Part shown: positions 560 through 2,410 of the stretch, piece by piece
Layout: the number at the start of each line of letters is the position of its first letter
Position numbering within the stretch: position 1 is the first letter of the stretch
Position numbers and translations under genes: made by a program
Origin: Mustelus asterias
Taxonomy: Eukaryota
Reading direction: 5' to 3'
Assembly (NCBI RefSeq): GCF_964213995.1
Contig: NC_135810.1
Span: forward strand, 9,734,001-9,798,000
Length of the DNA: 64,000 nucleotides
Notes under the pieces: model-generated
The model's input: the letters and a program-made list of their open reading frames with translations, nothing else
Told to the model about the DNA's origin: nothing
Database searches by the model: none

Positions 560-905
560 GGGCCTGATTTTACCATTTTGAGTCTAAGTGCCGAATCTGG
601 GCGTCAAATAGATCCGCACCTGGAATCCTCTTTCCAGTGCGCCCATACGCGTTTTGCCGGCTCCAGTCCGATTCGCGCTGTGGGCGGGGCTTAGCGCTGC
701 TGGAATGATTGGAGTTCTGAACAGCGCATGCAGTGAGAGGAGGGAGGGGTGGGAGGAGGAGGGGGGCTGGGAGGAGGGGGAGGTGGGAGGAAGGGGGGGC
801 AGGACCCAGATCATCCTCTGGTCGGGGCCCAGATCATCCTCTGGTCGGGGGGGGGTCCGCTGCCAGTCTGCGGTCGATCCCTCCTCCCGGAGTGGACGTG
901 CGGCC

Positions 906-1060
906 ATGCCATCCCACAAAACCTTCAGGATGAAGCGATTCCTCGCTAAGAAGATGAAGCAGAACCGGCCGATTCCACAGTGGATCCGCATGAAAACCGG
1001 CTACAAGATCAGTACAAGTCCAAGAGGAGACACTGGAGAAGGACCAAGTTGGGCCTGTAA
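906..1060 (+). pseudogene. RPL39: Processed 60S ribosomal protein L39 pseudogene (full length, 1-nt frameshift)
   Basis: ATG906 encodes [35 protein letters not shown]; after a 1-nt deletion (atcag^tac) it reads [18 protein letters not shown](1058-1060). 155 nt vs 156 expected; no introns. Confidence 0.95.
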
Positions 1061-1137
1061 AGGGATCGACCATCACTGGTACACTCCCAGCCACAGATTA
1101 CTCTTCCCTGCAGGGGCAAGAGAGCGGGAGAGATGGC

Positions 1138-1263
1138 TGTCTCCTCTTGGACTTGCACTGATTTTGTAGTTGGTTTTCATGTGGATCCACGGTGGAATCG
1201 GCCGGTTCTGCTTCATCTTCTTAGTGAGGAATCGCTTCATTCTGAAGGTTTTGTGGGATGGCA
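1138..1263 (-). pseudogene. RPL39: Second, truncated RPL39 pseudogene copy in inverted orientation
   Basis: Reverse strand reads [34 protein letters not shown]...; 118/126 nt identical to 907-1032 by manual count; same 1-nt deletion; lacks ATG and the C-terminal codons. Confidence 0.93.
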
Positions 1264-1671
1264 CCCCCCCCACCACCCCCCTTCCCACCCCGCCTCCCCC
1301 CCCCCCTCCCACCACCCCCTCCCCCCCAGACCAGAGGATGATCTGGGTCCCGCCACCCCCCCCCCGCAGAGGATGGCCTGCGTCAGAGAGCTGTTGCAGG
1401 CTCTGACCCCGCTCTTTGGAAGCTGCAGCGATGACTTCAGACTTTTATTTTGCAGGTCGCTTACAGCGCGGATGCGGAACGGGCCAGAAGACGGTAAAGT
1501 GGGATTTGGCGGTAGGGTTGGGCGCGCGGTTCATTAAGTCGATTTAAATGCCCGTGCCCGAATCGGTTGTCGGTACAGCCGCGATCTGCTCGGAATCGGG
1601 TGCAGATCACGGTTTAGGCCCGACGCCCAACTTTACCGCGATTCCGCGTCCATTTTGGTCAAATCGGACCC

Positions 1672-1850
1672 TAACTGCCGAATCTGGGCGTCAAATAGAT
1701 CCGAGCCTGGAATCCTCTTTCCAGCGCGCCCATGCGCTTTTTGCCGGCTCCAGTCCGAACTGCGATGTGGGCGGGGCTTAGCGCTGCCGGAACGTTCGGA
1801 ACTCTGAACTGCGCATGTGCAGTTCGAAAAAAATCCGAAGCAGCGCGTCC
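1672..1850 (+). mobile_element. Partial second copy of the left subterminal region of the same TIR element
   Basis: Direct repeat of about 584-733 (tgccgaatctgggcgtcaaatagatccg...gggcggggcttagcgctgc); truncated by CR1 at about 1851. Confidence 0.75.
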
Positions 1851-2410
1851 TGGTCTCCTTTTCTGAGGAAGTTTGCTCTTGCTGTCAAGGTAGTGCAGCA
1901 AAGGTTTACCAGGCTGATTCCTGGGATGGCAGGACTGATATATGAGGAAAGATTGTCTAGGTTAACATTGTTTTCGCTGGAGTTCAGACAAATGAGGGGT
2001 GTTCTCATAGAGACTTATAAAATTCTAACAGGGCCAGACAGGGTAGATGCAGGAAAGATGTTCCCGAATGTAGGAGAGTCCAGAACCAGGGGCCACAGTC
2101 TGAGGATTCGGGATAGACCATTTAGGATGGAGATGAGGAGACATTTCTTCACCCAAAGAGTGGTGAGCCAGTGGAATTCATCATCACAAGAAGTAGTTGA
2201 TGCCAAAACATTGAATGTATTCAAGAGGTGGCTGGATATAGCACTTGGGGCGAATAGGATCAAAGATTATGGGGAGAAAGCAGGATTAGGCTATTGAGTT
2301 GGATGATCAGCCATGAATGTGATGAATAGCAGAGCAGGTTCGAAGGGCCAAATGGCCTCCTCCTGCTCCTATCTTCAATGTTACTATGTTTCTATGTTTT
2401 CTATGTTTGA
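1851..2410 (+). mobile_element. 5'-truncated CR1 LINE (ORF2 C-terminus and 3' UTR)
   Basis: ORF 1815-2297 contains VQQRFTRLIPGM..YEERLSRL.LFSLEFR..RG.LIETYKI..TRGHSL..FFTQRVV..WN; (TTCTATGT)n tail near 2385-2408. Confidence 0.9.

Follow-up and report, generated by a model that had tools for sequence, protein, structure and literature searches.

Hundreds of Copies of a Small Cut-and-Paste Transposon Carry Intron-Free RPL39 Sequence in the Mustelus asterias Genome

The Window Element

The window, a stretch of 64,000 nucleotides (C10:9734001-9798000) from a 3.68-Gb assembly, contains near its start a small transposon element with spliced RPL39 sequence at its centre. The element and its right-hand neighbour consist of the following features, where L222 is a transposase-bearing element from elsewhere in the genome and the parent is the RPL39 gene itself.

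560..575, + strand: left terminal inverted repeat (TIR), 16 bp, a boundary common to many loci with differing flanks
560..731, + strand: left end shared with transposase-bearing Harbinger elements (89.5% identity to L222 over 172 bp)
732..888, + strand: G-rich internal arm including a cctcctccc tract, from sequence comparison
889..905, + strand: remnant of the RPL39 5' UTR, the last 17 nt of exon 1 ahead of the ATG, from alignment to the parent
906..1060, + strand: spliced RPL39 CDS of 155 nt, with both introns gone, a 1-nt deletion at the exon 2/3 junction (1012) and four substitutions relative to the parent
1061..1096, + strand: first 36 nt of the RPL39 3' UTR, up to a fold-back junction
~1101..1263, - strand: second, inverted RPL39 copy, lacking the first base of the ATG and carrying the same 1-nt deletion
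1264..1426, + strand: C-rich internal arm, in part an inverted repeat of 739-854, with the stretch that joins it to the right end
1427..1657, + strand: right end shared with transposase-bearing L222 (81% identity over 243 columns)
1656..1671, - strand: right TIR, matching the left TIR at 13/16 bases
1672..1853, + strand: TAA and the remaining part of another left end from this family, beginning at its internal self-target site

The original prediction described a Pack-type PIF/Harbinger-like element with imperfect 16-bp TIRs followed by TAA (1672-1674), holding an intronless RPL39 copy without poly(A). These points stand: the RPL39 sequence at 906-1060 has no introns, matches the PF00832 profile over the first 36 codons (E 4e-13) and is identical to the parent CDS at 151/156 positions, and no poly(A) lies 3' of it. 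The copy had also been called full-length, which it is not. It has 155 nt instead of 156, and the missing G at 1012 breaks the frame after codon 35-36, so that the C-terminal 15 residues lie in another frame. Nor is the cctcctccc tract an RPL39 leader, as had been supposed, since similarity to the parent begins only at 889 and the tract is part of the transposon arm, present in RPL39-free relatives as well; the parent does have a pyrimidine tract, but further upstream, and no cargo alignment includes it.

The second, inverted RPL39 copy had been overlooked. It ends 76 nt past the stop, has an internal deletion that spans the late CDS into the UTR, and is 94% complementary over 126 nt.

The TAA on the right had been taken for a target duplication. 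The left flank (557-559) is TCT, and the window copy itself thus has no such duplication; the sequence at 1671-1853 is instead a second family left end from its internal TAA on, at 88% identity over 147 nt. It follows that the window element sits inside another family member or is fused with one; it belongs to subfamily B (see below), nested at the family's own self-target site. The mismatched flanks are explained by this nesting. The remainder of the second member was found neither in the window nor in 10 kb upstream. Its left end is truncated by a repeat (window 1851-2372) that recurs at 64-66% identity in several other loci; its ORF (1815-2297) may correspond to the 3' end of a CR1/L2-type LINE.

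Element Ends and Transposase Partners

Are the TIR-like ends true element boundaries, as had been predicted? Both family ends were found in 116 distinct elements, 89 of which contain RPL39. The RPL39-bearing elements have a perfect 3-bp target duplication in 66/89 cases and one with a single mismatch in a further 20/89, while shuffled flanks gave a mean of 5.1 and a maximum of 16 perfect duplications. The ends are thus conserved as boundaries across the family, with distinct duplications. The predicted target motif, TWA, fared less well: distinct 3-bp duplications are present, but only 13/66 of them are TAA or TTA. A TWA target is a feature of plant PIF/Tourist elements. Here, 52/66 duplications have a central A/T, and the surrounding target sequence is loosely palindromic.

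The element's own left end resembles this loose palindromic target. At L014, L025, L068/L272, L133 and window 1672, one member has inserted into the left end of another at bases 26-28, a TAA-like site, which suggests a self-insertion hotspot at this position. The nested examples were read by eye; a pattern count was discarded because it matched ordinary ends too.

A search of the genome with the DDE_Tnp_4 profile gave 10,689 first-look candidates, many with open frames of more than 400 amino acids, and this genome has a very large Harbinger load. Of these candidates 150 were scored and 40 were examined as 10-kb stretches, many of which have the family's ends. Six of the loci (L199, L211, L217, L219, L222 and L226) have the family TIR pair and a 3-bp duplication at lengths of 4.2-5.9 kb, and three of them (L217, L219 and L222) match DDE_Tnp_4 with E values of about 1e-36 (for example, 3e-36). 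The ends of the transposase-bearing elements are up to 92-94% identical to those of subfamily A. One of three candidate N-terminal ORFs of these partners matches Myb_DNA-bind_4/5 at E 0.006-0.008, below the curated cut-offs. The predicted PIF/Harbinger assignment agrees with the TIRs, the 3-bp duplications and the ends held in common with DDE_Tnp_4 elements, and by these sequence features the family is classed as a non-autonomous PIF/Harbinger DNA transposon.

No transposase-sized interior was present in 20 extended left-end loci, where long interiors proved to be minisatellite expansions. The RPL39-free members L139 (C1:929.0-935.0 kb), L140 and L152 have an internal 40-bp minisatellite of up to 118 copies, and such an expansion has produced a 6-kb family element with its target duplication intact.

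Copy Number of the Family

How many elements carry RPL39? With window positions 880-1075 as a query, 1,066 candidates were found genome-wide; among the 40 that were scored, the top ones are 95-99% identical and lie on many contigs. A profile search with PF00832 yielded 3,700 candidates at first look; 150 of them were scored. In the genome, the 23-mer spanning exon 1 and exon 2 at their junction is found 905 times without mismatch (452 forward and 453 reverse), and its reversed control not at all. On C1 there are 64 of these matches in 52 clusters, and scaling up from them gives about 735 elements whose 23-mer is exact, which is the case in only about half of the copies (6/12 and 18/32). The family left end has 4,288 exact matches, an undercount of all ends (45/76 are exact). 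Among the first 30 left-end loci, 12 contain RPL39 sequence and the majority, 18, are RPL39-free siblings.

By extrapolation from the end of one contig, these counts put the number of RPL39-bearing elements in the genome at about 1,050-2,470, or roughly 1,000-2,500. Hundreds of copies of this small cut-and-paste transposon carry intron-free RPL39, and probably over a thousand do. The prediction that processed RPL39 is carried by a mobile PIF/Harbinger family dispersed in many copies is thus borne out by its identical placement in hundreds of copies and by the 905 junction matches. The same placement refutes a one-off insertion of a retrocopy, even though 18/30 siblings are RPL39-free. There is very little doubt that the cargo was amplified by transposition. 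The thousands of PF00832 candidates will inflate gene-family and retrocopy counts in this genome and confuse the mapping of RPL39 reads.

Subfamilies and Their Relationships

The RPL39-bearing elements and their nearest relatives fall into four subfamilies. Subfamily A is about 1.9 kb long, with one RPL39 copy, usually in frame, followed by a second cargo of 650 bp; it numbers around 50-65 copies (49 matches to one probe, 65 candidates), and its consensus differs from the live RPL39 gene at 1/156 positions. Most copies belong to subfamily B, which is typically 1.0-1.5 kb and shows, besides the 1-nt deletion and the inverted duplication, three further substitutions common to its copies. On average, copies diverge from the consensus by 2.7% in A and by 1.8% in B. 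One locus, L042, has the B structure with an intact frame and is an intermediate.

At the same central position, subfamily C (L229-L258, for example L236, and L137/L143) has a cargo of its own, about 560 bp long and with edges duplicated in inverse orientation; the subfamily accounts for 26/34 matches of the search that found it. Its arm ends in GGAGTG, the six-mer found at the 5' edge of the RPL39 cargo. In subfamily D, only 18 nt of the RPL39 5' UTR are kept, folded back on themselves.

A tree of the element ends was built from 500 columns and 55 sequences, among them subsamples of 10 for A and 15 for B. In it, subfamilies C and D and two autonomous elements fall between A and B, which are not sisters; support is moderate. 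Since one 5' junction is common to all copies, we infer from this tree that the capture happened once and that ends were exchanged and cargos replaced afterwards. A donor for the 650-bp cargo of subfamily A was sought in 35 loci and in the 50 kb surrounding the parent gene, without success. The series of subfamilies (in-frame, frameshifted, fold-back and cargo-replaced) amounts to a datable record of how a cargo is gained and reshaped.

The Parent Gene and the Extent of the Cargo

SNORA69, which is hosted in RPL39, served as a lead to the parent gene. It has one match in the genome (C14:8589693), inside a three-exon RPL39 gene at C14:8582.8-8590.2 kb whose introns measure 1,737 and 5,322 bp and which has an AATAAA at position 8590185, about +144 in the 3' UTR. 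The gene lies outside any such transposon element. Two splice-site patterns for the parent gene had no match in the genome; they missed it because its donor and acceptor are atypical. The acceptor of intron 2 has a weak pyrimidine tract, and the 1-nt loss of subfamily B lies exactly at that exon 2/3 junction. The first letters of intron 2, moreover, are almost those of exon 3, which gives an 8-nt repeat across the intron (C14:8584671, L062, and 8589993, L063).

In alignments to this locus, the cargo joins all three exons exactly, with per-exon identities to the subfamily A consensus of 99% and 98.5%, and both splice junctions are crossed, as expected from the original prediction of intron loss. 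Identity of the UTRs to the parent mRNA did not follow: the cargo lacks both the pyrimidine tract of the 5' UTR and the poly(A) signal. The two ends of intron 1 have only one base in common, so its exact loss points to an RNA template. An RNA origin of the cargo can be regarded as nearly certain. Could the gene have been captured as DNA and its introns deleted later by way of microhomology? The 8-nt repeat across the two ends of intron 2 would lend itself to such a deletion, but intron 1, with its single shared nucleotide, was lost just as exactly, and neither the A consensus nor the second cargo of A contains intron, promoter or downstream sequence of the RPL39 locus. This explanation is largely refuted and has next to no probability left.

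The 5' edge of the cargo is one junction in all copies, mostly 22 or 17 nt before the ATG, and no alignment begins earlier. The 3' edges lie mostly at +17, +36 and +76 after the stop, with none beyond +77, and coincide with inversion junctions; therefore, the original 3' end is not preserved. Neither poly(A), nor AATAAA, nor a flanking LINE-type duplication was found in any RPL39-bearing copy. The absence of poly(A) is no proof that mRNA was captured directly, as the present 3' edges lie at fold-back junctions of later date, and an original tail may have existed. A genome search with the distal 3' UTR gave two candidates, the parent and one old free copy, neither of which is within an element. 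This free copy (L108, C9:30873.6-30873.9 kb) is 5'-truncated, lacks the 5' half, ends in an A-run and is 81% identical to the mRNA; thus, RPL39 mRNA does get retroposed in this genome. Compared with a processed pseudogene, the cargo in the elements has the exact intron loss and the 5' truncation but neither the poly(A) nor the flanking duplication.

Entry of RPL39 into the Transposon

By which route did the RNA copy enter the element? The favoured one, with somewhat better than even chances, is a LINE-type insertion of RPL39 cDNA into one element, followed by loss of the 3' end. A LINE reverse transcriptase would have inserted a slightly 5'-truncated cDNA into the middle of an element, once. 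Fold-back (template-switch) rearrangements at the centre would then have deleted the original 3' end with its poly(A), leaving subfamily A with one in-frame copy and the 650-bp cargo and subfamily B with the 1-nt deletion and the inverted duplication. Both would have been mobilized in trans by the transposase of related autonomous Harbingers. Three points speak for this route: the slight 5' truncation agrees with it, the 3' edges arose secondarily, and the genome contains RPL39 mRNA retroposed at another place. A DNA transposon that received a retroposed sequence and then amplified it is known from bats, according to the available text of PMC4224331. The non-sister placement of A and B in the tree counts against a simple LINE scenario, for which end exchange or cargo replacement must be assumed. 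No clean pre-insertion element was identified, and the nearest cargo-free relatives, C and D, look rearranged or derived.

A second possibility, clearly less probable but not negligible, is that cDNA or mRNA patched a double-strand break at the palindromic centre, without target-primed insertion by a LINE, and that this centre is a recurrent capture site. The cargo is truncated at both ends and has no poly(A) in any alignment, although the junctions at its 3' edge are secondary. The centre is also occupied by at least two other cargos (650 bp in A and about 560 bp in C), each with inverted-duplicate edges. The arm of the RPL39-free subfamily C ends in the same six-mer, GGAGTG, as the 5' edge of the RPL39 cargo, and this could be a microhomology that favours a repair-type capture; microhomology gap filling is also the model for Pack-TIRs in the portion of PMC8277862 available. 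However, the folded-back 18 nt in subfamily D show that short RPL39 relics exist, the six-mer in C may be one of them, and both C and D group among the RPL39-bearing subfamilies in the tree of the ends.

The usual route for gene capture by such elements takes up genomic DNA (PMC8277862), and the available text of PMC4224331 includes captures of pre-existing retrogenes. It has therefore to be considered whether a processed RPL39 pseudogene was already present in genomic DNA taken up by the element, the 650-bp cargo of subfamily A being its flank. The family does take up other, apparently genomic, DNA. Against this, no donor was found: all 35 inspected second-cargo matches (of 49) have the full RPL39 CDS and element ends. 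The sole free retrocopy found is too divergent and lacks the 5' half, and the near identity of the A consensus to the live gene leaves little time as a pseudogene. Genomic capture is thus improbable, and the LINE-type insertion continues to be the preferred reading.

Coding State and Fold-Back Centres

The RPL39 ORF is intact in 21/35 subfamily A loci, which were picked by their second cargo. Over all codons of 27 subfamily A copies with a 156-nt CDS, the spectrum-corrected nonsynonymous ratio is 0.66 (p=0.04, uncorrected for multiple testing), and over the first 35 codons it is 0.83 (p=0.46). The ratio for 26 copies of subfamily B is 1.14, and A and B do not differ (Fisher p=0.21). A first selection test (pN/pS 0.5, p ~6e-5) was rejected, as most of its copies had been chosen by protein score and transitions were unweighted. 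There is no clear evidence of purifying selection on the in-frame subfamily A. The slight deficit of amino-acid changes in A argues weakly against pure neutrality; most likely, the RPL39 cargo is a neutral and mostly broken passenger.

Of 23 position-ordered elements (L097 was dropped in de-duplication), 21 contain RPL39 in both orientations, nine have stems of at least 140 nt, and each contains 46-199 21-mers identical to the parent mRNA. For the centre of the window element, the predicted fold has -273 kcal/mol, a value obtained without a shuffle control. If transcribed, the centres of subfamily B would be expected to fold into long hairpins. A 234-nt contig covers 881-1096 without gaps; it comes from a sequencing run that is only guessed to be RNA and is not counted as evidence of expression.

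A more far-reaching proposal holds that the palindromic centre is a site of RNA-templated break-repair capture, and that its commonest product, more than 1,000 dispersed head-to-head RPL39 repeats, yields hairpin RNA and small RNAs complementary to RPL39 mRNA. This is very unlikely as a whole. If the hairpin reading were true, transposon silencing would be tied to the host's RPL39, an essential ribosomal-protein mRNA.

Comparison with Known Systems

The best precedent found is the bat Helitrons with retroposed mRNAs. In PMC4224331, as far as its available text goes, four mRNAs were retroposed into bat Helitrons and amplified to 118 copies, six of which contain RPLP0 (HelibatN424); that paper calls its case the first report for any DNA transposon. 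Like the RPL39 family, HelibatN424 is a non-autonomous DNA transposon that has amplified a copy of a spliced ribosomal-protein mRNA, and its cargo likewise misses only a little of the 5' UTR (PMC4224331). The carriers differ, in that HelibatN424 is a rolling-circle Helitron and the RPL39 family is a cut-and-paste TIR element. The numbers also differ, with around a thousand RPL39 copies against six for RPLP0, or 118 over all four cases, so that the RPL39 family has about 100 times the copy number of the best precedent found. Poly(A), flanking duplications and empty exemplars were shown for the bat Helitrons and not found for the RPL39 family, whereas the inverted duplication of the cargo has no counterpart described in the available text of PMC4224331. 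Retroposed mRNA in a DNA transposon is thus already known; what is notable here is the type of carrier, a TIR transposon, and the scale. The gene amplification has two steps, an RNA copy and then cut-and-paste transposition.

Animal Pack-TIRs resemble the RPL39 family in having host gene sequence between TIRs that is spread by repeated transposition, and their cargo is of similar size, with a median of 224 bp compared with 254 nt for RPL39 (PMC8277862, available text). The survey in that paper lists four multicopy Pack-TIRs among 100 reference genomes from animals, as well as Ssk-FB4 in flies, and the word Harbinger is absent from its main text. Pack-TIRs are defined by genomic cargo with introns, whereas the RPL39 family has lost both introns exactly. 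Intronless captures of multi-exon genes were discarded by design in that survey (PMC8277862), and the retrocopy pipeline in PMC13320880, whose available text does not mention RPL39, filters candidates that overlap repeats. As far as these descriptions go, both filters remove such cases, and the class of spliced cargo may be undercounted.

Non-autonomous Harbinger-PIF elements have been surveyed as carriers of gene fragments among plant Pack-TYPE elements (PMC8903248), as the RPL39 family is; unlike the RNA-derived RPL39 cargo, that work concerns plants, and the words 'intron', 'mRNA' and 'spliced' have no occurrences in its main text. Vertebrate PIF/Harbinger elements, in the available text of PMC9179366, have TIRs, a 3-bp target duplication and a DDE transposase, and their autonomous partner has another ORF that is Myb-like. 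The TIRs of the RPL39 family are about 16 bp, compared with the 25-50 bp quoted there, and the family has host cargo in addition. A search of the open literature returned no report of RPL39 in a Harbinger element or of a TIR transposon at such a scale; the family could already be catalogued in Repbase or Dfam.

Contigs of two sequencing runs under other organism codes (X7 record 10 and X8 record 18) bridge the transposon arm and RPL39, which suggests that the element is not confined to one species label.
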